From the IMG/VR virus record IMGVR_UViG_3300020045_020339, positions 1-56,595 of that record: a stretch of DNA of 56,595 nucleotides. One strand, given 5' to 3'. Positions 2,568 to 32,900 of the stretch are shown here, piece by piece. The stretch comes from a virus. Its lineage: Duplodnaviria; Caudoviricetes. The notes beneath the pieces were generated by a model, which was not told where the DNA came from, searched no databases, and saw only the letters and a program-made list of their open reading frames with translations. The number at the start of each line of letters is the position of its first letter. Position 1 is the stretch's first letter. The position numbers and the translations under genes were made by a program.

Positions 2568-3233
2568 ATGATAAACGGTATCATTTTAAAGCAATTAGCA
2601 CCATCACTACCACAGGTAAAAGCTAATCAATATGCTGATGATTTGGACAATATTTGTCCAAAATACGGTATTGGTACCGCAGATATTTTCCATGAATTTA
2701 TTGCCACCCTTATACATGAATGCCACGAGTTTACCCGTTTTGAAGAAGGCTTAAATTACCAGGCTGTAGCCCTCACTAAACTATTTGGCCGGCACCGCAT
2801 AAGCGTTGATGATTGTTACCGCTATGGAAGAACAATGAAGCAGCCAGCCAATAAACAGATGATTGCAAATATCATTTACGGTGGCCAGTGGGGTAAAATA
2901 AATTTGGGCAATACTCAGCCAGGTGATGGCTGGCTTTTCCGTGGATCTGGACCAATGCAAATAACCGGCCGTGGCCTGGTAACAAAATTTACTATTTACT
3001 ATAATAAATTAATGGGTACTTCTTTTACACCCGAGCAAATGGCCAATCATTTACGAACCAATATTATTATTGGCATACATGCCGCCTGCTGGTTTTTTGC
3101 TATAGAAAAAAAGCTGATTGACGAGGCTATTAATGATGAGGTTTTAGCAATAAGAAAAAAAGTAAACGGCGGCACATTTGGTTTGGCCGAAATTGAAAGG
3201 CTTACCAATAAAGCCCGGCAATTGATACGATAG
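2568..3233 (+). CDS. Endolysin, glycoside hydrolase family 19
   Basis: FIATLIHEC...EEGLNY, GDGWLFRGSGPMQITGR and VNGG motifs typical of phage GH19 lysozymes. Confidence 0.9.
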   Translation: MINGIILKQLAPSLPQVKANQYADDLDNICPKYGIGTADIFHEFIATLIHECHEFTRFEEGLNYQAVALTKLFGRHRISVDDCYRYGRTMKQPANKQMIANIIYGGQWGKINLGNTQPGDGWLFRGSGPMQITGRGLVTKFTIYYNKLMGTSFTPEQMANHLRTNIIIGIHAACWFFAIEKKLIDEAINDEVLAIRKKVNGGTFGLAEIERLTNKARQLIR

Positions 3234-3307
3234 TATTTTCAAACATTCCGGGAGTTTGTTTAGTGGCTCCCGCAATTTTTCTCATATGCAGTTAGTTTTG
3301 GTAAACG

Positions 3308-3332
3308 GGCCCTGTTTTTACAGGGCCTTCTT
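3308..3332 (+). terminator. Hairpin GGCCCTGT-TTTT-ACAGGGCC after lysis cassette
   Basis: Perfect 8-bp stem, 4-nt loop, weak U-tract. Confidence 0.5.
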
Positions 3333-3358
3333 AATGGCCCAAAAAATAAATAAAAAAT

Positions 3359-3402
3359 ATTTGTGCAAAAATTTGCACAAATGAAAAAATGTATTATCTT
3401 TG
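3359..3402 (+). promoter_or_regulatory. Bacteroidota sigma-A promoter with palindromic operator over the -33 box
   Basis: TTTG 3372-3375, 19-nt spacer, TATCTTTG 3395-3402; perfect IR ATTTGTGCAAA-AA-TTTGCACAAAT 3359-3382. Confidence 0.8.
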
Positions 3403-3449
3403 TGTAACAAATCAGTTAACCGGGCTAATCACCCACAAAAATTAAAAAA

Positions 3450-3845
3450 ATGAAAAGTTACAAAACACTTAACGAAGCTATTGCAGCAGCAGAATTACAA
3501 TTAAATTCAAAAGTTGGTATTGAATCTGCGGAATTTCAAGAGGTAGAATTTTATAGCAAAAACGACCCTGCTAATACAGATACATTTACCTGCTATGTAG
3601 AAGATGGCAATAATCGTTTTTGCAAAAATGGCGGTGAAGTAATAACAAAGAAAATAATAACAACCTTCGTTATTGCTTGGCAACAGAACACCAACAAAGT
3701 ACGTTATCATGTTACTGGCGAAAAAAACGGCACAGCAGTTGCCGAAAGTGCAACTTTTTTTGATAGCGAAGAAGAGGCGCAGGCTCACATTGACGAGAAT
3801 GAATACCTAAATTGCTACGTGGAAGAGATTGAAATTTCTAATTAA
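3450..3845 (+). CDS. Acidic hypothetical protein (accessory cassette A)
   Basis: 131 aa ORF directly after promoter, A-rich leader. Confidence 0.75.
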   Translation: MKSYKTLNEAIAAAELQLNSKVGIESAEFQEVEFYSKNDPANTDTFTCYVEDGNNRFCKNGGEVITKKIITTFVIAWQQNTNKVRYHVTGEKNGTAVAESATFFDSEEEAQAHIDENEYLNCYVEEIEISN

Positions 3846-3851
3846 ATAAAA

Positions 3852-3878
3852 AAAGGCCCGGTAATCAGCCGGGCCTTT
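3852..3878. terminator. Intrinsic terminator, potentially bidirectional
   Basis: AAAGGCCCGG-N7-CCGGGCCTTT with flanking A/T tracts. Confidence 0.75.
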
Positions 3879-3920
3879 ACAAATCAATTTTCCTTTTACA
3901 GAAAATTAAAAAGTAAAAGT

Positions 3921-4247
3921 ATGAATAAAAAATACACTAAAACACCAGAAGATTTTGCAGCCTTTTTTATTGGCGAAAACAAAATTACCCATCCCGATTT
4001 TGAGTATATTTTTCATTTGGCAGAGCCACGTTGCATGATTAAGTACCGGCTAAATGATGGCTACTTTGCAGCCTATGACGAATTTTTTAATAACATAGCC
4101 GAAGTTCAGTGGCTGGATGGGCCAGCAGCAGCCCCTGCAGGAAACGATTTGCAAGCTTTTTTAACCACAGCATGGAATTACCTGGCTATTGAAGAGCGTA
4201 TTTTAGAAGACAATTTAAACGACATGGAAGATGACGAAGATTATTGA
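3921..4247 (+). CDS. Acidic hypothetical protein
   Basis: 108 aa, D/E-rich C-terminus. Confidence 0.75.
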   Translation: MNKKYTKTPEDFAAFFIGENKITHPDFEYIFHLAEPRCMIKYRLNDGYFAAYDEFFNNIAEVQWLDGPAAAPAGNDLQAFLTTAWNYLAIEERILEDNLNDMEDDEDY

Positions 4248-4422
4248 TAAAAATTTAACCTGGCTGCAAAAGCAAGGCCAGTACTTAAAAATAGACCGCA
4301 TTGCAAAAGAAATCGGCATACCGGGCCGCACATTAAAAGCTTTTGTTGATGGCGATCGGCCGCTAGCTGATAAGTGGCATGATAAAGTAAGTGAATGGGT
4401 TAAAGATCACAAAAAAGGTTGA
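4231..4422 (+). CDS. Small HTH DNA-binding protein
   Basis: KIDRIAKEIGIPGRTLKAFVDG resembles an XRE/Cro-type HTH. Confidence 0.65.
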   Translation: MTKIIDKNLTWLQKQGQYLKIDRIAKEIGIPGRTLKAFVDGDRPLADKWHDKVSEWVKDHKKG

Positions 4423-4583: not shown

Positions 4584-5261
4584 ATGGCAAATCTACAAAC
4601 AAAATCCGATTCACTAATCGGTAAAACTTTCCAGTATTTAACAGTTACCAGCATTTCAAAGTATCCACGGCCATGGTCTAAATTAGACTATGATTGTTTA
4701 TGTATCTGCGGAAAAATTACCCAAGCTTCAAAAAGACAGTTAATTAGCAAAAAACAGGGGTTAAATAAAAGGTCATGTGGTTGTATGACAAAGATTCTTC
4801 AGGGTGAAAATAGGCAAAAGGAAAAGAGAACTGATGACCACAAACGCTTGCATCATATATGGTGCGGGATGAAAGCCCGATGTTATGATGAAAAGCATTT
4901 ATCTTATGAAAATTATGGTGGGAAAGGAATTTTTGTTTGTGATGAATGGCTCAATGATTTTATTAAATTTCGTGATTGGTCTTTAATTAATGGTTATAGT
5001 AAAAATCTTTCAATTGATAGAATTAATTGTAGTGGTAATTATGGCCCGGGTAATTGCAGGTGGGCAGATCTGGAAACACAAAACAATAATAAAAGCACAA
5101 GCCATAATATTATAATAAATGGAGTTACAAAAACACTTACACAGTGGGCGAAACAAAACGGACTTAATAAAAATATGGTCACGAAAAGAATAATGAGAGG
5201 TATGTCTGAAGTAGATGCTGTTACCTTACCCCGCCAAAAGACGATGCAATCTTTCAAGTGA
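4584..5261 (+). CDS. HNH-type homing-endonuclease-like protein
   Basis: CICG, SCGC, RLHHIWCGMKARCY, NYGGKGIFVCDEW and SIDRIN...GNYGPGNCRWA...QNNN motifs. Confidence 0.8.
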   Translation: MANLQTKSDSLIGKTFQYLTVTSISKYPRPWSKLDYDCLCICGKITQASKRQLISKKQGLNKRSCGCMTKILQGENRQKEKRTDDHKRLHHIWCGMKARCYDEKHLSYENYGGKGIFVCDEWLNDFIKFRDWSLINGYSKNLSIDRINCSGNYGPGNCRWADLETQNNNKSTSHNIIINGVTKTLTQWAKQNGLNKNMVTKRIMRGMSEVDAVTLPRQKTMQSFK

Positions 5262-6806
5262 CTTTTGTATTAGGGTACCATCGGGAGTACTAATGGTACT
5301 TTCATCATGTACCGCAAAGGGCTGCTCTATCAAGAGTAGCCCTTTTTCTTTTAGTATCAAGGCTTTACCAGCAAAGAGGGAATAAAGTTTAGGGGTTCTA
5401 TAAATACCATTATAGGTTAGGGGAATTTGAAATAAAATATTTAAAAGCGACTGTTGTTTATGCAACGGCATCTCCAAAAAAAGTTCCGGCAGGTTTAAAA
5501 GTTTAGGTAATAATTGATCCAGCATTTCAAATAGTACATTGGTTTCGGTACCAGCTTTTGCCAATTCTACTTCATAGCCAGAGATCCTTTCCTTTATTTC
5601 ACCGGTAACCCGGTTGTAAATACCAGCATCAACATCAGCAGTTAAAAACTTTTCCTGTACTTTTTCCAACTCCCGTTTTGCTTTCTGGTGTTCAATATTC
5701 AGCCGCATAATATTGCCACCTTTATTATTTTGGTGGTTCTTAATCACCTCTACCATGCTGTATTTTATTGTTTCAACATCAGCTGCTGAAAGGGAAAGGA
5801 TCTGTAATATCTCCAGCATGGTACCATGCAATTTGGTTGCGGAGTAATTATTTTCCGGATGACTATTGCATTTATAATACCAGTAGTATTTTCCATGCCG
5901 GCCTTTACTATTACCAGCAGTCATTTTTCGGCCACAGGTGCAATACAATACACCACGTAACCATACTTCACTTTCTGCCTGGTGGCTAACCGTTTTTTTA
6001 TTAAGCCTGTTCATGGCTTTGTAATAGTCCAGTTTACTTACAAGCGGTTCATGTATTGCATCCACTTCAAAGGCTGGATTGTTACCATTAGCAGGAACTG
6101 CAATTATGCCGGCATAAAGAGGGTTCGATAAAATGCGGGCTACAGCCGACTTGCTACGTAACTTTTTTAATGCCGGTAACAATGTTTTTATCTGTTCAAT
6201 ATTTACACCATCATTGTATAAAGTAAAAACCTGCTTAATAATATCAGCCTGTTCTTTCACCGGTACCATCACCGGCTCATGCTTACGCAGCTTCTTTTCT
6301 TCTTTACTCAGTTTAGTATTTTGGTAACCGTATGGTGCCAGGCCACAGTAACGGCCCCGGCACAAGCTGTTGTAAATACCATCCTTTACACGCTGCTTTA
6401 TTCTGTTATATTCATTGTTGCTGAACAGTAGCTGCATGATCCGGTTCAGCTGGTTGCCAATGTCCTCATTATTACGATCAACCGCATCAGTAACAGTAAG
6501 TACTTTTACATTTAACCGGTCTTCTATTTCCCGTAGTTTTAAAAGTGCATCCAGTAAGGTGGCCCGGCTAAAGCGATCAATGTGAAAGATGATCAGGTAC
6601 TTTATAGATTTGTTTGCCTTAAGGTATTTTTCCAGCGCAATCCATTCGGGCCGGTTAAAGGTAAAAGCGCTGCGGCCGTTATCGGTAAATACTTTTTTAA
6701 GGTGAAGGTTATTGCTGCTGCAGTATCGTTCTATGCCTGTTAATTGAGATTCCAGCGAATTACTCTGGTCCTTATCTGATAATCTTCTGTAACCGATCGC
6801 ATCCAT
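5226..6806 (-). CDS. Large serine recombinase (integrase)
   Basis: N-terminal resolvase motifs YRRLS and DRFSR, APYGY, recombinase domain ILSNPLYAG, zinc ribbon CTCG...YYKC, coiled coil. Confidence 0.93.
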   Translation of the reverse strand: MDAIGYRRLSDKDQSNSLESQLTGIERYCSSNNLHLKKVFTDNGRSAFTFNRPEWIALEKYLKANKSIKYLIIFHIDRFSRATLLDALLKLREIEDRLNVKVLTVTDAVDRNNEDIGNQLNRIMQLLFSNNEYNRIKQRVKDGIYNSLCRGRYCGLAPYGYQNTKLSKEEKKLRKHEPVMVPVKEQADIIKQVFTLYNDGVNIEQIKTLLPALKKLRSKSAVARILSNPLYAGIIAVPANGNNPAFEVDAIHEPLVSKLDYYKAMNRLNKKTVSHQAESEVWLRGVLYCTCGRKMTAGNSKGRHGKYYWYYKCNSHPENNYSATKLHGTMLEILQILSLSAADVETIKYSMVEVIKNHQNNKGGNIMRLNIEHQKAKRELEKVQEKFLTADVDAGIYNRVTGEIKERISGYEVELAKAGTETNVLFEMLDQLLPKLLNLPELFLEMPLHKQQSLLNILFQIPLTYNGIYRTPKLYSLFAGKALILKEKGLLLIEQPFAVHDESTISTPDGTLIQKSLERLHRLLAG

Positions 6807-7111
6807 TATTTTAATATTGCTAATGCCTGTTTTAATAATTCAGCAGCAGTAGGTTTTTTAGTTGCACGGTGCATGTAATTGGTATAGCCATAAAACCACT
6901 CCATAGAAACGTTGTACAGGTTGGAGGCTTTTAAAAATTGCTCGTGCTGAAAAGATTGTTTGCCATCAAGTATCTGCTTTTTATTGTTGGAGTGCTTAAA
7001 TCCTATTTTAAGTAAAAAATCTTTTTCACTACCCACCAACTTTTTATAGATGCACCAGTCCATCAGCTCCAGCATTCTCTTATCCCAAACAGGTATTTTT
7101 TTTGCAGCCAT
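6806..7111 (-). CDS. Putative HTH-like protein translationally coupled to integrase
   Basis: 101 aa; YNVSMEWFYG resembles the end of an XRE HTH domain; stop overlaps integrase ATG. Confidence 0.5.
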   Translation of the reverse strand: MAAKKIPVWDKRMLELMDWCIYKKLVGSEKDFLLKIGFKHSNNKKQILDGKQSFQHEQFLKASNLYNVSMEWFYGYTNYMHRATKKPTAAELLKQALAILK

Positions 7112-7129
7112 TAGTTAATACTTTTAATA

Positions 7130-7345
7130 CTATTTTTTACGGCAATCAACATCATTGCCTAATGTATCGGTAAAATTTATTTGCCTGTATTCATCTTCGG
7201 TCATACAGCCAACATCTTGATAAACATTTGAATTGTACCTTACCGGGCACTCCCAGCAGTAAACTTTATCTTTTTTGCAACTGTTAAAAATTACAATTGC
7301 TAAAGTGACAAAAAGGAGCAGTTTGGTAAATTTTTTTATTTTCAT
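7130..7345 (-). CDS. Small Cys-containing lipoprotein in lysogeny operon
   Basis: Basic N-terminus, hydrophobic core, FNSC-KK lipobox-like site, four further Cys. Confidence 0.6.
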   Translation of the reverse strand: MKIKKFTKLLLFVTLAIVIFNSCKKDKVYCWECPVRYNSNVYQDVGCMTEDEYRQINFTDTLGNDVDCRKK

Positions 7346-7765: not shown

Positions 7766-8524
7766 TTATATTTTAATTTTAAATTCTTTCTTTGCCGAAA
7801 TAGTTTTTTTGATCAATCTTCTAAAAACCCAAAGTTCTTTCAGGTCCTTTTTATCAAATAGTTTTTGTGGTGTGTGAGTTTCATTATCACTTATTAATAC
7901 CCATTGGCCATTATCTTTTACAAAAACTCTTTTTATGGTAACCATGGTATCAGTTACTAAAACATAAACGTAATAATTTCTGATATTGTCCCAATCTTCG
8001 GTAGGTACCTGGCTGCAAAGCACATGATCACCGGCTGTAAGAGTGGGCTCCATACTATCGCCATCCACTTCAAAGTACCTCCATATTGCACCTGCATAGC
8101 TCACACCAGGAGGAATAGCGTATTTATCAAGAGAGTTTAAAAGATCAATATTATCATAAGAATTTACATAGCCAGCCCTTGCCTTTACTGTTACCAGTGG
8201 TACTCTAAATTCTTGCTTTTCATTTTTTATCGACCTTCTTTTTACCATATAATCAACCTCTGGTTCCTCCAAAGTATTGTTTTCGATTGTCGAAATATCG
8301 AGCATTTTAGGAAGCTTTCCTATTTCTATATAGGCAGGATTTACACCGAAATATTTACTCAAGCGTCCTAAAAAAAGTGAGCTTATTTCCTTGCTACCAC
8401 CTAAAATATCTGAAACATAGTTGCCAGACCGATATCCAAGAGCTAAGCTTAAGGTATCGTTGGTAAGCTTATGTTCATTCTTTAAAAAATCTATAATCTC
8501 ATTAAGTCGTTCAGTCTTTTTCAT
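7766..8524 (-). CDS. cI: CI-like repressor (HTH plus S24 autopeptidase)
   Basis: N-terminal HTH, ARAG cleavage-like site, FEVDGDSMEPTL (catalytic Ser), VTIKRV (catalytic Lys); divergent from small Cro-like gene. Confidence 0.9.
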   Translation of the reverse strand: MKKTERLNEIIDFLKNEHKLTNDTLSLALGYRSGNYVSDILGGSKEISSLFLGRLSKYFGVNPAYIEIGKLPKMLDISTIENNTLEEPEVDYMVKRRSIKNEKQEFRVPLVTVKARAGYVNSYDNIDLLNSLDKYAIPPGVSYAGAIWRYFEVDGDSMEPTLTAGDHVLCSQVPTEDWDNIRNYYVYVLVTDTMVTIKRVFVKDNGQWVLISDNETHTPQKLFDKKDLKELWVFRRLIKKTISAKKEFKIKI

Positions 8525-18224: not shown

Positions 18225-18776
18225 ATGAAACTTGATTATCAAATCATTGACGGAAAAATTTACGACAGGCAATTAAACGAAATCCCTGTTGATGAAAAAG
18301 GTATTGTAACGCTTATTGTTGAAGGAAAACAAAAAAGGTTTGTGTTATCGAAGCTGGCTGTGTGGATGGAAAATAATATTGAATTAAAGCCAGCTAAAAA
18401 AATAAGGAAAAGCAGAGAGGCAAAAGTAATATCTCAGCCAGAATATTTACCTGAACAGAAACAAAGGGCTGCAAGAAATTCACTTACACCTGAACAAAGG
18501 AAGCTAAAGAAAAACGCTTATATGCGTGAATACAATGCTAAAAATCGGCCGGAAAAAGAAAAGAAGCCTGAAAAAAAAGTAATACGCAGAAATTTAGGCC
18601 GAACCGGTTTACATAGGATGAAAGGATTACTTGCCATTACACCTGATGGAAAGGAGATAGCTTTTAAAAGCAGGGCTGAGGCTTCAAGAAAATTAAATAT
18701 TGATAGAGGTGGAATTTTTCAAGTTTTGAGAAATGAAATTGAATCAGTGAAAGGTTACAAATTTAAAACAGCATAA
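18225..18776 (+). CDS. Basic protein with C-terminal NUMOD1-like DNA-binding motif
   Basis: FKSRAEASRKLNIDRGGIFQVLRNEIESVKGYKFK. Confidence 0.65.
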   Translation: MKLDYQIIDGKIYDRQLNEIPVDEKGIVTLIVEGKQKRFVLSKLAVWMENNIELKPAKKIRKSREAKVISQPEYLPEQKQRAARNSLTPEQRKLKKNAYMREYNAKNRPEKEKKPEKKVIRRNLGRTGLHRMKGLLAITPDGKEIAFKSRAEASRKLNIDRGGIFQVLRNEIESVKGYKFKTA

Positions 18777-27123: not shown

Positions 27124-27157
27124 TTTGGCTTCGCTGTGTATTAATTTAATAACTTTG
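27124..27157 (+). promoter_or_regulatory. Promoter for terminase genes
   Basis: TTTG 27124-27127 and TAACTTTG 27150-27157 (22-nt spacer). Confidence 0.55.
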
Positions 27158-27173
27158 GTATTATTGTAATATT

Positions 27174-27710
27174 ATGGCAAAAGCTGATAAGCAGGTAATT
27201 ATTGATTCTATCATAAAGGATATAGAAAAAGGAACCGACCGTGGTAAGGTAATTGCAAAGTATTGCAAAAAACTTCAAAAATCTGATCGTACAATAGATA
27301 GTTACTGGAAAATTGCAAATGAACAATACAAAGAAAGACAGAGCAAGGCTAAGGCGGCGGCGGATGCAGCTTATATCGCAGCTAGTGCTGAAGCCGCTAA
27401 ACAAGCTGTAATGAGCTCACAGGAGCGAAAGGAGATTTTAAGCAAAATAGCTAGAGGTGAAAGAACATCACTTGAACCAAATCCTAAAAAACCGTCTGTT
27501 CTTATAGAGGTGCCAGTAATTGTTGATACTTTAGAAATAATAAGAGCAATAGGCGAATTAAATAAAATGGAAGGTGACTATGCTCCTACTAAAGTCGCTC
27601 CTACCAATGTAAAAGGCGAAGACCTGCAGCCGCCACTTGATTACTCAAAACTTTCAGTTGCAGAATTAGAAGCTTTAAAAGCAATACATGACAAACACGC
27701 TGCCGTTTAG
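27174..27710 (+). CDS. terS: Terminase small subunit
   Basis: ERKEILSKIARGE and IRAIGELNKMEGDYAPTK segments; immediately upstream of and overlapping terL. Confidence 0.8.
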   Translation: MAKADKQVIIDSIIKDIEKGTDRGKVIAKYCKKLQKSDRTIDSYWKIANEQYKERQSKAKAAADAAYIAASAEAAKQAVMSSQERKEILSKIARGERTSLEPNPKKPSVLIEVPVIVDTLEIIRAIGELNKMEGDYAPTKVAPTNVKGEDLQPPLDYSKLSVAELEALKAIHDKHAAV

Positions 27711-29145
27711 TATTGACATTAATAAAATTAATGCAGCGCTTGCCGGTAAAGAGTTGAAGCGGTTTGTTCTATATACTAAGGGAGATTACATAGTTAAGCC
27801 ATTCCACGAATACATAATGCAGCGGTTGGATGCCTTTGCAAAAGGTGAGATAAAGAAGCTGATGATATTTGCACCGCCACAGCATGGCAAAACAGAAATT
27901 GCCTCACGTCGTTTTCCTGCTTATTTCCTTGGCCACAATCCCGAAACAAAAGCAGCAGTAGCCAGTTATTCGGCAACGATAGCACACGAAATTGGCAGGG
28001 ATATAAAAAACATTATCAATAGCCAGGAATATAGAGAAATTTTCCCGAAAGTGACAGCTGGTAAGAATGTGAATGGTAATACCAGTATGTCGGATGCAAG
28101 CCATTACTACCATATTTCCAGTACTGAAAAAAAGAATAATGGTTATGTGTATACTGTTGGCCGTGGCGGCTCTATTACTTCGAAAACTGTTGACCTTGGA
28201 ATTATTGATGATATTTTGAAAGGTAGGGAAGAGGCTACAAGTGCAGGAGTAAAGGGTAAGATGTGGCAATGGTATAAAGATGATTGGCGTACCAGGATGC
28301 ATAACGATAGTCAGGAATTGATAATGACAACACGATGGGCTGAAGATGATTTAGCAGGCAGGTTATTAAAAGAGGAAGCGGACCAGTGGGAGGTAATTAT
28401 TTTTCCAGCAATTAAAACAGAAGATTATTCAGCCTATGATCACCGACAACCCGGCGAAGTTCTTTTCCCCGAAAAACATTCACTGGAACGCATCCTGCAA
28501 ATAAAGAAGACTAATGAAACCAGTTATGATAGTTTATATCAGCAGAATCCTAAACCTAATACTAAACTGTTATGCCATCCTGATTTTAAAAAGGTAAAAG
28601 AGTTCCCGCTGGACTTGATCAACAAATGGATTATTGGTATTGACTACGGTATGAATGACGAAACAGTAGTGGTTGCTATTGGCTGCCATGAGAATAAACG
28701 TTATTGGAAAACATTGCTCTATCAACCAGGCAGGGAGATTATTAAAAATTATAAGGAGCAGGCTAAGGAAGAGGTAAGCGAAGCAGATACGGAAAAAGTC
28801 AACAACATTATCGTCAATGCCATTTACCAAGTAATTGTTAAGAATGGGCATGAGAAGTCACAGTGCTACAGTGAGCATGATAAGGTGAAGATTGTGAAGC
28901 TATTGGGTAAAGGGTTGCTGGTTTATTTGGCTCGTAAAACTATCAGCGAAGGTATTGAACGGGTGAATGAGCTGGATAATTATTATTTAGATACTGACCT
29001 GCAGATGTATAATGAGGTAAGTGTTTACCAGTTTAAGAATATCGGGGAAATAATATTGGATGAGCCTGTTGACGGTAATGACCATATTATGAATGCTGGC
29101 AGGTATGCGATTTATACTGACGATATTTTGAATGGGCAGGCGTAA
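27688..29145 (+). CDS. terL: Terminase large subunit
   Basis: Walker A APPQHGKT, Walker B IIDD, TRW coupling motif, YQQNP, nuclease GIDYG and DHIMNAGRYA. Confidence 0.93.
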   Translation: MTNTLPFSIDINKINAALAGKELKRFVLYTKGDYIVKPFHEYIMQRLDAFAKGEIKKLMIFAPPQHGKTEIASRRFPAYFLGHNPETKAAVASYSATIAHEIGRDIKNIINSQEYREIFPKVTAGKNVNGNTSMSDASHYYHISSTEKKNNGYVYTVGRGGSITSKTVDLGIIDDILKGREEATSAGVKGKMWQWYKDDWRTRMHNDSQELIMTTRWAEDDLAGRLLKEEADQWEVIIFPAIKTEDYSAYDHRQPGEVLFPEKHSLERILQIKKTNETSYDSLYQQNPKPNTKLLCHPDFKKVKEFPLDLINKWIIGIDYGMNDETVVVAIGCHENKRYWKTLLYQPGREIIKNYKEQAKEEVSEADTEKVNNIIVNAIYQVIVKNGHEKSQCYSEHDKVKIVKLLGKGLLVYLARKTISEGIERVNELDNYYLDTDLQMYNEVSVYQFKNIGEIILDEPVDGNDHIMNAGRYAIYTDDILNGQA

Positions 29146-29171
29146 AAATTTGTAATCAAAAACAAAAAGAT

Positions 29172-29768
29172 ATGAAAAAGATTAGTACTTTATTTAAAAA
29201 GAATCCTGAAAATTTAGGTTTAGTAATTAACGAAATCAACCCCGAAAACCAATGGGTATTTGATCAAGGAGTGAAATCAACAAGAAAGTATGATGGTATG
29301 GCATGCGCTATTATTAACGGAGAATTGTATAAAAGAAGAGATGTTAAAAAGGGTAAACAAATACCTATTGGCGCAATTGAGTGCCAAGAAGCTGATAAAA
29401 TCACAGGTCATCATCCGCACTGGATAAAATGTTTCCCTGAAAACAAAGAAGATGAATTATTTTTTGAAGGTCTTGCCGCATTGAAATTACAAACAAAGTA
29501 TCCGATTGAATTAGGATATGGAACTTATGAGTTATGCGGTGAAAAAATATCAACACAGAGATTTGACCCAAACTTTAATCCTGAAAAAATTTCAGGGCAT
29601 TTAATGATACCACATGGTAAAGATATATTGAGTTTGCCTTCTTTAGAATTTGAAGCACTTAAACAATATTTAACCAATCCTGAAAATGATATTGAAGGTA
29701 TTGTTTTCTACCATCCAGATGGCAGGATGTGCAAGATTCGGAAATCGGATTTTGGTATTAAAAGGTAA
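29172..29768 (+). CDS. ATP-dependent RNA-ligase-like nucleotidyltransferase (DUF5565/RLIG1-like)
   Basis: Motif I TRKYDG, motif III YELCG, motif IV IEGIVF, motif V MCKIR; HPHW segment; no OB domain. Confidence 0.75.
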   Translation: MKKISTLFKKNPENLGLVINEINPENQWVFDQGVKSTRKYDGMACAIINGELYKRRDVKKGKQIPIGAIECQEADKITGHHPHWIKCFPENKEDELFFEGLAALKLQTKYPIELGYGTYELCGEKISTQRFDPNFNPEKISGHLMIPHGKDILSLPSLEFEALKQYLTNPENDIEGIVFYHPDGRMCKIRKSDFGIKR

Positions 29769-29899
29769 AATACTAAATTAAAAAACCGGGCCACTTATTG
29801 CAGCCCGGCTCCCCATTAAACATAAAAAATAAGACAAGTACAAAAACGCATTTAGATACACAAGGTAAAAATAATATTTAAAGTATTATATTAATTTTA

Positions 29900-29907
29900 T
29901 AGCTTTG
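29900..29907 (+). promoter_or_regulatory. Bacteroidota -7 promoter box at start of fold-back RNA
   Basis: TAGCTTTG ends 2 nt before the first paired base (29910). Confidence 0.6.
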
Positions 29908-30007
29908 AATTACCGGCTCCCCGAAACCACGGATTTGTCAGGGAACCGCCAAGTGTGCGAGCGGCAAATCCGTATCTTGCCAACCAGTGTAAATTATAAA
30001 ACAAAAA

Positions 30008-30301
30008 ATGCCTATAATGAATTTGCGTTATGTTAAAGTAGCTTTGCTCATGAGCGTTAAGCGTTTAGTGGGCTTATTTAAAAAGAAAAAAAGTTGCGGA
30101 GCATTGCCGGATACGGCAAAAAAACACCCGCTTTCGGATTCGGGTGCAAACGCTAAAAGCGTTTTGAATAGTAGTAATTTTATTTTAAGCCAATTTCCTT
30201 GTTGTCAATTTGAGCGTAGTGTTCGTATAAATGTTTCCAATAAGCGTCCATATGTTCGTCAAGGTAGCTGGCATGCATACATCGAATCTCGTCTAAAGTA
30301 A
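30008..30301 (+). CDS. Possible ORF whose start is sequestered by the fold-back
   Basis: ATG 30008 with A-rich leader; cationic amphipathic N-terminus; C-terminal part is antisense to another ORF and may be spurious. Confidence 0.3.
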   Translation: MPIMNLRYVKVALLMSVKRLVGLFKKKKSCGALPDTAKKHPLSDSGANAKSVLNSSNFILSQFPCCQFERSVRINVSNKRPYVRQGSWHAYIESRLK

Positions 30302-30440
30302 TACCCCTTTTATCCGCTTCCTGCTGTAATATTATATCTTCAAAAAAGTCTTTACTTACTTTTAATTCAACCAACAATTTCAGTATAATAGATAGTTGGT
30401 CGCTTTGGGTTACATTAAAACTAAAATCCTTTGGTAACAT
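30180..30440 (-). CDS. Acidic helical hypothetical protein inside the fold-back loop
   Basis: 86 aa, protein-like composition, the only plausible minus-strand gene in the late region. Confidence 0.6.
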   Translation of the reverse strand: MLPKDFSFNVTQSDQLSIILKLLVELKVSKDFFEDIILQQEADKRGITLDEIRCMHASYLDEHMDAYWKHLYEHYAQIDNKEIGLK

Positions 30441-30673
30441 AATCTTCGCTTAATTCTCCGCTCTGAGGTGGCGAGAGCTTTTTCTTTTTAAATAAACCGC
30501 TAACAAAGCGGCTACTTAATATAACGACTAATTATAGGCTTTTTTGTTGCCTTTGGTTGGCAAGATTTTCGGGGAGCCGGTAACGGTCCCATATGCCCGG
30601 CTATAAAATTATTTCTCAAAAAAAATTAAAATAATACTTTGGTTATTAAAATAATTTATCTTTATGGCAACAA

Positions 30674-30898
30674 ATGCCACCAATAACCGCCGAAATAGTA
30701 AAGAAACTTGATAATAAGGTGAGGTGTCTGTGCTGCAAAAGGATATTATTTGAAGGTGTAATTGAGCGTGGTTGCATTAATATTCAATGCCCATCATGCG
30801 GAACTGACAATGTATATTTTGTAGCAGGCGTTCAAAAGGATCGTTTTGTAAATAGTGGCAGAAGCATGGTGGATATGATAAAAAATACTGTGAAGTAG
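30674..30898 (+). CDS. com: Mu Com-like zinc-ribbon regulator
   Basis: VRCLCCKRILF...INIQCPSCGTDN matches the Com-family CxxC...L...I.I.CPxC..N pattern. Confidence 0.75.
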   Translation: MPPITAEIVKKLDNKVRCLCCKRILFEGVIERGCINIQCPSCGTDNVYFVAGVQKDRFVNSGRSMVDMIKNTVK

Positions 30899-30960
30899 AG
30901 CAGCGGTAGCTCGTCGGTCTCATAAACCGAAGGTCGTTGGTTCGAATCCATCCTTCGCAA
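30889..30960 (+). tRNA. tRNA-Met(CAT), initiator-derived, CCA not encoded
   Basis: Acceptor TGTGAAG/CTTCGCA, D-stem GAGC/GCTC, anticodon stem TCGGT/ACCGA with CAT at 30921-30923, TTCGAAT loop. Confidence 0.9.
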
Positions 30961-30973
30961 CAAATAATTTTAA

Positions 30974-31017
30974 TGAACCTAAAAGGTCGTGAGTGTAATG
31001 CTCCCGGCCTTTTTTTT
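30974..31017 (+). promoter_or_regulatory. Conserved leader hairpin, copy 1 (before portal)
   Basis: TGAACC-TA-AAAGGTC-N17-GGCCTTTT; same pattern at 47614. Confidence 0.7.
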
Positions 31018-31026
31018 ATTCAAAAA

Positions 31027-32535
31027 ATGAATTTAAAACAGGCAGGTAAAGAAATAATAAAAGGTAATATCGGCAATGCCTTTAGCCAGTTGTTGACACC
31101 ATCAACATACCGTGGCAATAGTCCGTTACCTTCTCCTGCTGTTCCGCTTGATGTAATGGCCTTTGGCGGTGATGGTGTTGGCGCCTTTTATAGTTGGAAT
31201 GGAATAGGCAGTTCTTTGACAGCATATGAAGAATGTCCGCCGTTAATGTCGGTGTGTAACCGCCGAGCCTTAGCATTTATCAATGCAACTATATCGGTAG
31301 TTAATAGCGCCGGTAAACCTTCTACCTCATCACAGAGTAAGCAGGTATTAAAGCGGCTGGCAAATCCTAATCCATTACAAACGACAGCAGCATTTTTAGC
31401 ACAGGTACATATTTACATTGATTTGGTAGGCTATGCAGTTATTGCACCTATAAGGCCTGTTGGTTTTGAAATGTATGAATCGGAAAGCCTTTGGGTAATA
31501 CCTCCAACATTATGCAGCCTTGGTTGTGATAGTACAGGATTGAATTTTACTACCGGCGGAATTGATTATGTGATGATAGGAGGCCGCAGGGTGAATACTT
31601 CAGATGTAATGATCATTACTGATATTAATCCATCCATCAGGGAAATGGTAATACCAGGTGCAAAAATCAAAAGCTTGGAATTGCCCATTAATAATATCAT
31701 AGGCGCTTACCAAAGTGAAAGCACATTGATAAAGCACAGGGGGCCAACGGGGTTAATAACAAACGAGATCAGTACGCAAATGGGTGCACCATTGCCTTTA
31801 TCCGATACCGAAAAGGCCAGAATACAGGCAGGCTTTAACCGGGCTTATGGCTTATTGAACGGACAAAGTCATGTTGTAATTACAAGTGCTGCATTAAAAT
31901 ATCAGAAAACTGGCTTCAATGCGGAAGAGCTTGGCCTGCATAAGACAATTGAAAACGGCACCAAAGCAATTTGTGATACGATCGGTTTCCCAACTGAGTT
32001 GATGGGTATCATCAACCCTACTTACAGCAACAAGGAAAGCGCTGATAAGGAGGTCTACACTAAATACATCATTCCTTCTGCAATCAGCATTGCTCAACAG
32101 CTTGGCAGCTACCTGTTGCCCATATCCGATAAGCTATGTTTTGATTATCGGCATGTACCTGAATTACAGCAGGACAAACAGAAAGAAGCGCAAGCCAGGA
32201 AGACTTTAATCGATAGCCTAAAAATAGAATTTGATTTGGATTTGATCACTCAAAACCAAATGTTGGAGCTGATGGGATTGCCGCCACTCGGTCCTGAAGG
32301 TGATTTAAGAAAATCACAAATACCTCCGGGCAATATTCCTTTAGCTGTTACACTTGGCGTTGGTGGCGTACAGGCTTTAACAGCAGTATTAGCTGCACAA
32401 GGTATTTCAGAAGAAGCAAGGCAGGCAACGCTTGAAGTAGTGTTTGGTTTGAAACCAGAAGATGCTAGAAGGATGAGTTCACAAGCTGCTACAGAAACAT
32501 CACAAAATTCATTACAAACCACCGCTCAACAATAA
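31027..32535 (+). CDS. Portal protein (HK97-like)
   Basis: ATG 31027; LANPNPLQT, GYAVI, AICDTIGFPTELMG and TYSNKESA segments; follows terminase. Confidence 0.88.
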   Translation: MNLKQAGKEIIKGNIGNAFSQLLTPSTYRGNSPLPSPAVPLDVMAFGGDGVGAFYSWNGIGSSLTAYEECPPLMSVCNRRALAFINATISVVNSAGKPSTSSQSKQVLKRLANPNPLQTTAAFLAQVHIYIDLVGYAVIAPIRPVGFEMYESESLWVIPPTLCSLGCDSTGLNFTTGGIDYVMIGGRRVNTSDVMIITDINPSIREMVIPGAKIKSLELPINNIIGAYQSESTLIKHRGPTGLITNEISTQMGAPLPLSDTEKARIQAGFNRAYGLLNGQSHVVITSAALKYQKTGFNAEELGLHKTIENGTKAICDTIGFPTELMGIINPTYSNKESADKEVYTKYIIPSAISIAQQLGSYLLPISDKLCFDYRHVPELQQDKQKEAQARKTLIDSLKIEFDLDLITQNQMLELMGLPPLGPEGDLRKSQIPPGNIPLAVTLGVGGVQALTAVLAAQGISEEARQATLEVVFGLKPEDARRMSSQAATETSQNSLQTTAQQ

Positions 32536-32900
32536 TGCAGACACTAATTATCATATCAGTAGTAATAATATTTTTTATCACAGCATGGATGTGTAAAAAG
32601 CAGTTGGTAAAAGTTCTTTTAAAACTGAAAGGCAAGCTGCATATTCAAAGCCTGCGTACTGCTATCAATGATGCTGATGCGGATAAAGAAAAAACCGATC
32701 GTAAGAATTTGGTAGTGTTCAATACATCTACCGGTGAATTTGAACCTGTGCAAAAAAGAATGCTGAAGGGTATTGCAAAAATGAAAAGCCAGAACAAAGT
32801 ACCGGCAGGTTTTAGGCAACCAAAGGCGGTAAAGAAATCAGCATTGACTTTACAAAAAGTGAAGCATGTTGAAAACAAATCATTATACGTAACTAAATAA
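32535..32900 (+). CDS. Basic protein with N-terminal TM
   Basis: TAATG coupling; LIIISVVIIFFITAW. Confidence 0.65.
   Translation: MQTLIIISVVIIFFITAWMCKKQLVKVLLKLKGKLHIQSLRTAINDADADKEKTDRKNLVVFNTSTGEFEPVQKRMLKGIAKMKSQNKVPAGFRQPKAVKKSALTLQKVKHVENKSLYVTK

Follow-up and report, generated by a model that had tools for sequence, protein, structure and literature searches.

The interval of 1.9 kb between the large terminase subunit gene (terL) and the portal gene of the virus recorded in IMG/VR as IMGVR_UViG_3300020045_020339 (56,595 bp, hereafter called the window) is probably a hotspot in which independent accessory elements have collected around one resident gene, neighbours by insertion history rather than parts of an RNA-processing machine. 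The interval contains, in this order, a 198-aa open reading frame (ORF) for an RLIG1-type RNA ligase, a hairpin at 29779-29815, a region dominated by a long inverted repeat, a 74-aa zinc-ribbon ORF, a tRNA-Met and a second hairpin followed by eight U residues. An earlier note, made from the sequence of the window, had read these elements as one RNA-centred system. The parts are regarded here as separable because two of them correspond to separate insertions/deletions (indels), because the ligase occurs in other loci without the inverted-repeat cassette, and because relatives of the portal gene are accompanied by neither ligase nor cassette. The two genes bounding the interval, and the distance between them given in the note, are confirmed by matches to the Pfam families Terminase_6N and Phage_portal (Table 1).

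The two indels were recognised in near-identical phages, by comparing Logan contigs of four sequencing runs (of eight listed) with positions 27600-32600 of the window. Record 17 of run X5, a contig of 273 nt and depth 2, is made up of 29113-29142, 29779-29853, 11 other letters and 30603-30759, and these pieces differ from the window by 1, 2 and 0 letters, respectively. Both the ligase cassette and the inverted-repeat cassette are missing from this contig as two separate gaps, with 75 nt retained between them. The ligase-less joint preserves the terL stop and is followed directly by the hairpin 29779-29815. The joint left by the inverted-repeat cassette (29853/30603), with the same 11 letters, is found also in record 6 of run X1, which comes from a different study, and in a third run (X6) the contig of record 25 breaks at 30603. 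In the right arm of the repeat, the outermost 46 nt (30603-30648) lie beyond the cassette border, in sequence that the variants keep. The cassette itself was found in none of the four runs examined. In run X1, the tRNA region is largely covered by contigs of a near-identical phage, with record 6 ending at 30926 and record 8 starting at 30949; no contig of matching depth lies over the ligase in this run, which is a coverage gap and not proof of absence. None of the eight runs found to share sequence with the phage, with small shares in all eight, is an RNA run.

The same elements are distributed independently in more distant phages. The ligase is present in 24 other IMG/VR viral loci, at 36-64% identity, none of which has a relative of the window terL, portal, Com-like gene or ORF86 (the gene enclosed by the inverted repeat), or any similarity to the cassette beyond AT-rich noise. 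A tRNA, tRNA-Asp, occurs within the fetched flanks of a single ligase locus (L009), and a long-range perfect inverted repeat of at least 15 bp within 1.5 kb in none of 22, a count that excludes L005 and L019 as apparent duplicates of L004 and L018. Furthermore, the neighbours of the ligase are varied and include terL of another family (L004/L005, L017), portals (L009, L012), helicases (L018, L021) and a second RNA ligase (L024). From the side of the portal, ligase, ORF86 and cassette similarity are each absent from all 36 relative loci. A terL-based scan of IMG/VR gave one relative (L026, 61% identical), in which terL is followed by a 53-aa zinc ribbon and then by the portal gene, with nothing else in between, and a portal-based scan of JGI metagenomes gave no relatives. 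The co-occurrence of ligase, fold-back RNA and tRNA across phages, proposed in the earlier note as a check, is not seen in the 24 ligase and 36 portal loci. The integrated system of ligase, RNA, Com-like protein and tRNA is not supported, in view of the separate indels and of the ligase loci without a cassette; as to its Com-like component, this is a conserved neighbour of the portal gene also in relatives lacking both ligase and cassette, all but one of which lack a tRNA as well.

The ligase ORF matches the Pfam family RLIG1 (PF17720) with 28.2 bits (cutoff 25), in an alignment restricted to residues 114-197, and matches phrog_14301, annotated as 'RNA ligase', over its full length (E = 1.8e-62). 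A phmmer search against the PDB returned only the 'RNA ligase 1' of Yasminevirus (9c6l; E = 4.6e-7). The segment TRKYDG of the phage protein aligns over the lysine motif of this enzyme, with K39 in register with the catalytic lysine, which is a methionine in the K73M mutant entry 9c6m. With 18 phage homologues as input, AlphaFold2 gave a model with a predicted local distance difference test (pLDDT) score of 88.8, and the top ten Foldseek matches to it are all chains of 9c6l or 9c6m, the best being 9c6l_A with a template modelling (TM) score of 0.78 and an E-value of 2.7e-11; Naegleria Rnl and T4 Rnl1 come far behind, with TM scores of at most 0.49. The motifs KYDG, YELCG, EGIV and MCKIRK are all invariant or nearly so across the 18 homologues, and K39, D41, G42, E120, E175, G176 and K188 are invariant. 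The catalytic glutamates of human RLIG1 are E195 and E250 (PMC11494293, in excerpt). Judged by sequence and predicted structure, the 198-aa ORF clearly belongs to the RLIG1/C12orf29-type 5'-3' RNA ligases, as a new member of a family already described. Pfam, PHROG and the structure prediction of 29172-29768 thus agree with the earlier note, in which an RNA ligase had been recognised from the motifs KYDG, ELCG, EGIV and K.

With the Yasminevirus RLIG1 the phage ligase shares the fold, the register of the motif I lysine and the nucleotidyltransferase motifs, as well as a minimal organisation with a single catalytic domain. It differs in being shorter (198 against the 277 aa crystallised), in its identity of 22%, in the partial extent of its Pfam alignment and in the presence of an invariant cluster formed by C71, H80, H83 and C87. 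This cluster is common to the phage ligases and may be a metal site. The window protein has, in addition, a 14-residue insertion (at about residues 108-135) in which the confidence of the model is lower (pLDDT 73-77).

Homologues of RLIG1 are carried by bacteria and viruses, and several of them, including one from a phage, ligate tRNA halves with 5'-phosphate/3'-hydroxyl (5'-P/3'-OH) ends in vitro; exactly these ends are required by the family, and the viral members are expected by the authors to counter host immunity (PMC11494293, in excerpt). From the excerpted part of a second study, Toprim tRNases leave ends of this type, and a ligase alone reseals a singly nicked tRNA (PMC12445682). In agreement with the earlier note, no polynucleotide kinase or phosphatase domain was detected in the 30 non-structural window proteins scanned, a set outside which the small ORFs and the structural genes lie, nor among 19 scanned gene neighbours of the ligase in other loci. 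Since host nucleases that leave 5'-P/3'-OH ends would make a kinase or phosphatase unnecessary, a counter-defence ligase working without a kinase is plausible. Most likely, by analogy with these enzymes, the ligase acts alone on 5'-P/3'-OH nicks and reseals nuclease-cut tRNA or other RNA as a counter-defence. A role in the repair of nuclease-cut RNA, which the note had assigned to the ligase together with the tRNA, is therefore retained as the leading possibility for the ligase alone, whereas its extension to a module of both is not, a tRNA being present in one of the 24 ligase loci.

A comparable logic is known from T4, where Rnl1 and Pnk are directed against PrrC: in both cases an ATP-dependent RNA ligase is encoded by the phage, and its likely task is the resealing of nuclease-cut tRNA. 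However, T4 Rnl1 belongs to a different ligase family (TM 0.42 to the phage ligase model), the kinase/phosphatase partner was not found here among the proteins scanned, and, in contrast to heal-and-seal repair, the phage ligase would be restricted to 5'-P/3'-OH nicks. As to the surroundings of the ligase elsewhere, in L024, a 433-kb viral contig, an RNA ligase of the family PF09414 with a PHA02142 OB domain is encoded two genes upstream of the RLIG1-type gene (3141-4364 and 5001-5621, respectively). Directly upstream of the ligase in L012, positions 400-888 encode a DNA polymerase beta thumb domain and may represent a ligase-associated Pol-beta nucleotidyltransferase, of a type mentioned in the excerpt of PMC7824862.

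The inverted repeat lies between the ligase and the zinc ribbon. Its 17-bp block (29910-29926 with 30567-30583) is perfect and non-random. Allowing up to three mismatches, the window contains only these two matches to the 17-bp sequence, where 0.05 would be expected, and two matches are reached in none of 100 shuffles. In a scan of 30 overlapping 3.6-kb tiles of the window, this block is the longest long-range perfect inverted repeat, and all tiles without it stay at or below 13 bp. The earlier note had taken it as the closing helix of an RNA with paired ends; the block is instead part of a longer, DNA-level repeat around a gene on the opposite strand. In fact, about ten collinear perfect blocks of 5, 12, 12, 17, 14, 8, 9, 11, 5 and 16-21 bp, separated by indels and local hairpins, pair 29872-30097 with 30476-30648, for a total of about 118-125 long-range pairs. 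The helices run on both outside the 17-bp block (12+12+5 bp) and inside it, so that no RNA end is implied at 29910 or 30583. The repeat region folds with -237 kcal/mol on the + strand (z -9.3) and with -222 kcal/mol on the - strand (z -8.6), and its long-range helices contain six and five G-U pairs, respectively. Since the two strands fold about equally and have similar G-U counts, the inverted repeat is one of the DNA, and neither strand is marked out as an RNA.

The 3' side of the stem pairs continuously over 31 nt (30553-30583). A search of 29860-30660 against Rfam 15 gave no family match; over 29700-31100 nothing besides the tRNA was found at E < 0.05, and the tRNA was the only match both at the gathering threshold and at E ≤ 10. 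The cassette is present as a single copy in the genome, and a blastn search with it against GenBank phages returned nothing. Inside the left arm, two identical TAGCTTTG boxes are found on the + strand (29900-29907 and 30039-30046), which could be inward-facing + strand promoters antisense to ORF86.

ORF86 lies in the 380-nt centre between the two arms. A full HMMER search of 1.84 billion representatives identified three homologues, which are 82-89 aa long and 39, 37 and 30% identical (E-values between 9e-8 and 4e-5), while a word-seeded search, made over 5.8 billion proteins, recovered nothing besides ORF86 itself; on the strength of the three homologues, ORF86 is taken to be a real, rare protein family. 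It has an isoelectric point (pI) of 5.0, a grand average of hydropathy (GRAVY) of -0.35 and 16 acidic residues, and its model consists of three helices (pLDDT 70). ORF86 has no match in Pfam, PHROG, PADLOC or NCBIfam. Its fold was not matched at E ≤ 0.001 either, and the ESM Atlas gave only weak helical look-alikes. Moreover, no loci of the family were found in IMG/VR, JGI metagenomes, species genomes or GenBank phages, and ORF86 itself was found neither in 3 genomes nor in 401 genomes of one phylum, picked from the guessed Bacteroidota host. The toxin of a type I toxin-antitoxin system was considered as a candidate and rejected, since the pI, GRAVY and acidic residues of ORF86 are not those of a hydrophobic membrane peptide.

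On the - strand, ORF86 is followed by an intrinsic terminator-like hairpin, and the hairpin at 29779-29815 also has the features of a - strand terminator, with -23.0 kcal/mol on this strand versus -12.2 on the + strand and a U run on the - strand only. This hairpin is kept in the variant contig lacking both cassettes (record 17 of X5), and its persistence there is the reason why leftward transcription from the intergenic region at this point may be ancestral.

Morons are autonomous promoter-gene-terminator inserts between late genes. The ORF86 cassette is likewise a small gene with its own terminators between late genes, present or absent among close relatives; it differs from morons in being antisense to the operon and in the interrupted inverted repeat (about 120 pairs) that encloses it. 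We know of no described counterpart of an antisense, repeat-framed moron, although no literature search was made on this point.

The zinc-ribbon protein scores 18.9 bits against Zn_ribbon_Com (PF10122), under the Pfam cutoff of 22.9, and matches phrog_6417, a 'translational regulator', at E = 3.9e-5. C18, C21, C39 and C42 are invariant in 23 sequences and form two CxxC-type knuckles, and Pfam Com is matched at E ≤ 0.01 by 7 of the 23 syntenic members (best E = 1.8e-8); a kinship with Com at the level of the family is thus likely. What had been called a Com-type zinc ribbon does have the four cysteines and is Com-like, but its own Pfam score remains under the cutoff. Mu Com (PF10122), the translational activator of mom, is a similarly small, four-cysteine zinc ribbon, the proteins being of about 50-85 aa; the window protein differs from it in the score just given and in the position of its gene, which is upstream of the portal gene and not of a DNA-modification gene. 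A homologue with 55% identity is found in L027, and 25 of the 32 assessable related loci (L026-L060, three of which are too short; some of the seven scored 'no' have looser cysteine spacing) have a small zinc-ribbon ORF no more than 900 nt upstream of the portal gene. As far as the synteny of these loci indicates, the Com-like gene is a conserved resident of the interval and a partner of the portal gene across the lineage.

The tRNA-Met (CAT) is the sole tRNA of the genome. It was described in the earlier note as modified; a tRNA is present, but its cloverleaf is canonical and nothing in it is 'modified'. Its anticodon stem lacks the three G-C pairs typical of initiator tRNAs. The final codons of the Com-like ORF, and also its stop, are provided by the 5' acceptor arm (30889-30898); the ORF stops four residues earlier than its homologue in L027, as would result from an insertion of the tRNA into the end of the gene. 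The only portal relative with a tRNA is L059, in which a tRNA-Met (CAT) lies at 2274-2346, upstream of zinc ribbon and portal; its acceptor stem is unlike that of the window tRNA, and it appears to have been acquired independently. The hairpin preceding the portal start is present as the note had stated but, with its run of eight U, is terminator-like.

From these data, the interval was probably assembled as follows. The resident Com-like zinc ribbon would be a translational regulator of late genes, by its likeness to Mu Com. A stand-alone RLIG1-type ligase would have been slotted precisely between the terL stop and the following hairpin, and would reseal tRNA or other RNA nicked by host nucleases. 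The separate 749-bp cassette would represent an antisense moron, with ORF86 on the opposite strand and its own terminators; its repeat might insulate or process transcripts where the antisense unit meets late read-through, or might be just a by-product of inverted duplication, both of which are tentative suggestions. Finally, the tRNA-Met would have been added at the 3' end of the Com-like gene, ahead of the terminator-like hairpin.

Two other explanations connect the ligase with a neighbouring RNA. According to the more credible of them, which is nevertheless improbable, ligase and tRNA-Met form a dedicated anti-ribotoxin module, in which the ligase repairs and the tRNA replaces the target of an anticodon nuclease. 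Phages are known to counter tRNA-targeting immunity with tRNAs of their own and with RNA ligases (PMC7824862 and PMC11494293, both in excerpt), and in L009 ligase, tRNA-Asp and portal follow one another in a row. However, 23 of the 24 ligase loci have no tRNA in the fetched flanks, the phage of X1 covers most of the tRNA region with no contig of matching depth over the ligase (with the reservation on coverage made above), and in the window the two genes are 1.1 kb apart, with two other units in between, and the tRNA is an ordinary tRNA-Met, in which no changes for nuclease resistance could be recognised. The second explanation, likewise put forward in the earlier note, sees in 29910-30583 a single RNA whose ends, joined by the 17-bp helix, are sealed by the ligase into a circle; in a refined form, host RNase III would cut the stem and the ligase would join the ends. 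The very stable long-range stem, in which 31 nt are paired without interruption on the 3' side, would suit a double-strand-specific RNase acting on the late transcript; the requirement of the ligase family for exactly 5'-P/3'-OH ends (PMC11494293, in excerpt) would suit joining without end-healing, the product being either a circular RNA antisense to ORF86 or a re-joined terL-to-portal mRNA. The two TAGCTTTG boxes of the left arm, a putative promoter motif, could start a + strand RNA. On the other hand, the helices pass the 17-bp block and define no end there, the - strand forms an equally good fold, neither strand is favoured by the G-U counts, the centre is occupied by a conserved protein gene on the other strand, no Rfam family matches, the other ligase loci have neither cassette-like sequence nor, in those examined, a long-range repeat, and ligase and cassette are separate indels. 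Both the original and the refined form are thus considered very improbable.

For the cassette taken by itself, mobility offers two further explanations. It could be a gene-carrying inverton, with recombination between the repeats flipping ORF86 and switching its expression: the two copies of the perfect 17-bp inverted repeat, with 640 bp between them, enclose a gene that runs antisense to the operon, and a serine recombinase (5226-6806) is among the proteins of the phage. Yet this 526-aa protein, the only recombinase found, is of the large serine type and lies beside the S24 repressor, 23 kb away, so that it is likely the integrase; typical inverton repeats are far shorter and less interrupted; and the cassette is absent from the four runs examined, of the eight. 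An inverton is accordingly held to be unlikely, somewhat more so than the module of ligase and tRNA. Presence and absence among near-identical phages, together with the long inverted arms, would also be expected of a miniature transposable element that ends in long inverted repeats and carries a passenger gene. However, the ends of the repeat are not found at the borders of the cassette (29854 and 30602), no target-site duplication is seen, the empty site carrying 11 unrelated letters, and the element exists as one genome copy. Its 17-mer was not found in other IMG/VR contigs, and in 185,579 species genomes it gave 52 single hits, never paired and with no match above 30 nt. The repeats at the ends, target-site duplication and several copies that characterise a miniature inverted-repeat transposable element or an insertion sequence-like element are thus all missing from the cassette, and a transposon has very little probability here, as little as a circular RNA. 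Both the transposon and the circular-RNA explanations fail the tests run here.

Some observations weigh against a hotspot of independent elements. The ligase-less form is known from the single X5 contig, in one run. No close relative was seen with just one of the two cassettes, and therefore a joint gain or loss in the lineage is possible. Moreover, since the repeat extends 46 nt past the right border of the cassette and the minus-strand terminator survives, deletion of the cassette would fit about as well as its insertion. Furthermore, the ligase is at most two predicted genes away from a terL or portal of unrelated family in four other contexts of the 22 (L004/L005, L017, L009 and L012), and its placement near these genes may be more than chance. 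Finally, the perfect blocks of the inverted repeat are parted by indels, with almost no substitutions, a pattern that could reflect selection for pairing rather than history.

The window represents a complete virus record and has direct repeats at its termini, its bases 1-121 being identical to the final 121, and nearly all of its genes are on the + strand. A large serine recombinase, an S24 repressor-like protein, RecT, an SNF2 helicase, a DNA methylase and an HNH-type endonuclease are found among its proteins, and for this reason the phage is considered temperate. The gene of the free-standing HNH/I-HmuI-like endonuclease is another mobile insert of this genome. In the relative L026, terL (4804-7239, 811 aa) carries an in-frame insertion of about 330 aa with a LAGLIDADG homing endonuclease, an intein, which splits the region aligned to residues 68/64 of the window terL. 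The host may be guessed to be a member of the Bacteroidota, because the genes have no Shine-Dalgarno-like leaders and because a TTTG-N-TAnnTTTG box, a Bacteroidota-type promoter motif, occurs at 27124-27157, ahead of the gene preceding terL. In the whole genome this motif was found 4 times against 6.2 expected, and TAnnTTTG alone is under-represented (45 against 89 expected); the counts being below expectation, promoters within the cassette have no statistical support.

Table 1. Features of the terL-portal interval and other genes of the window (strand: +, -, or a dot for features given without strand).
Feature	Position	Strand	Size	Remarks
Large serine recombinase	5226-6806		526 aa	
S24 repressor-like protein	7766-8524			
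Free-standing HNH/I-HmuI-like endonuclease	18225-18776			Between methylase and SNF2 helicase
Large terminase subunit (terL)	27688-29145	+		Pfam Terminase_6N, 36.5 bits
Ligase cassette	29143-29778	+	636 bp	Missing in X5 record 17 (joint 29142/29779); bounded by 6-bp direct repeat
RLIG1-type RNA ligase ORF	29172-29768	+	198 aa	
Terminator-like hairpin	29779-29815	-		16-pair stem and U run; directly after ligase
Inverted-repeat cassette	29854-30602	.	749 bp	11 other letters instead in near-identical variants from two studies
Left arm of long interrupted inverted repeat	29872-30097	.		Contains 17-bp block 29910-29926 and local hairpin 29927-29973
Intrinsic terminator-like hairpin with U7	30119-30152	-		Downstream of ORF86
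ORF86, small acidic helical protein	30180-30440	-	86 aa	Distant homologues
Right arm of long interrupted inverted repeat	30476-30648	.		Contains 17-bp block 30567-30583
Com-like zinc-ribbon protein	30674-30898	+	74 aa	Four invariant Cys
tRNA-Met (CAT)	30889-30961	+		Canonical cloverleaf; ARAGORN; Rfam tRNA 65.8 bits (cutoff 29), full model
Hairpin with U8 before portal start	Stem 30981-31013, to 31018	+		-17.5 kcal/mol, z -3.98; terminator- or attenuator-like
Portal protein	31027-32535	+		Pfam Phage_portal, 71.9 bits; 35 related loci

With the terL-portal interval interpreted as a probable hotspot, a tempting false lead is removed, in that RNA-related parts adjacent to one another in such a place do not amount to a system. 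The inverted-repeat cassette around ORF86 is currently unique and would matter only if relatives or transcripts show the repeat to be functional; if the reading in which an RNase cuts and the ligase joins were true, it would mean a protein-only, cut-and-ligate RNA processing in a phage. The Com-like zinc-ribbon gene appears as a conserved, uncharacterised partner of portal and terminase across a phage lineage. As to the ligase, members of the RLIG1 family from phages have already been described, and the window would add another stand-alone RLIG1-type ligase, in a temperate phage and with no kinase or phosphatase among the proteins scanned, which fits a role in countering nucleases that leave ligatable 5'-P/3'-OH nicks.

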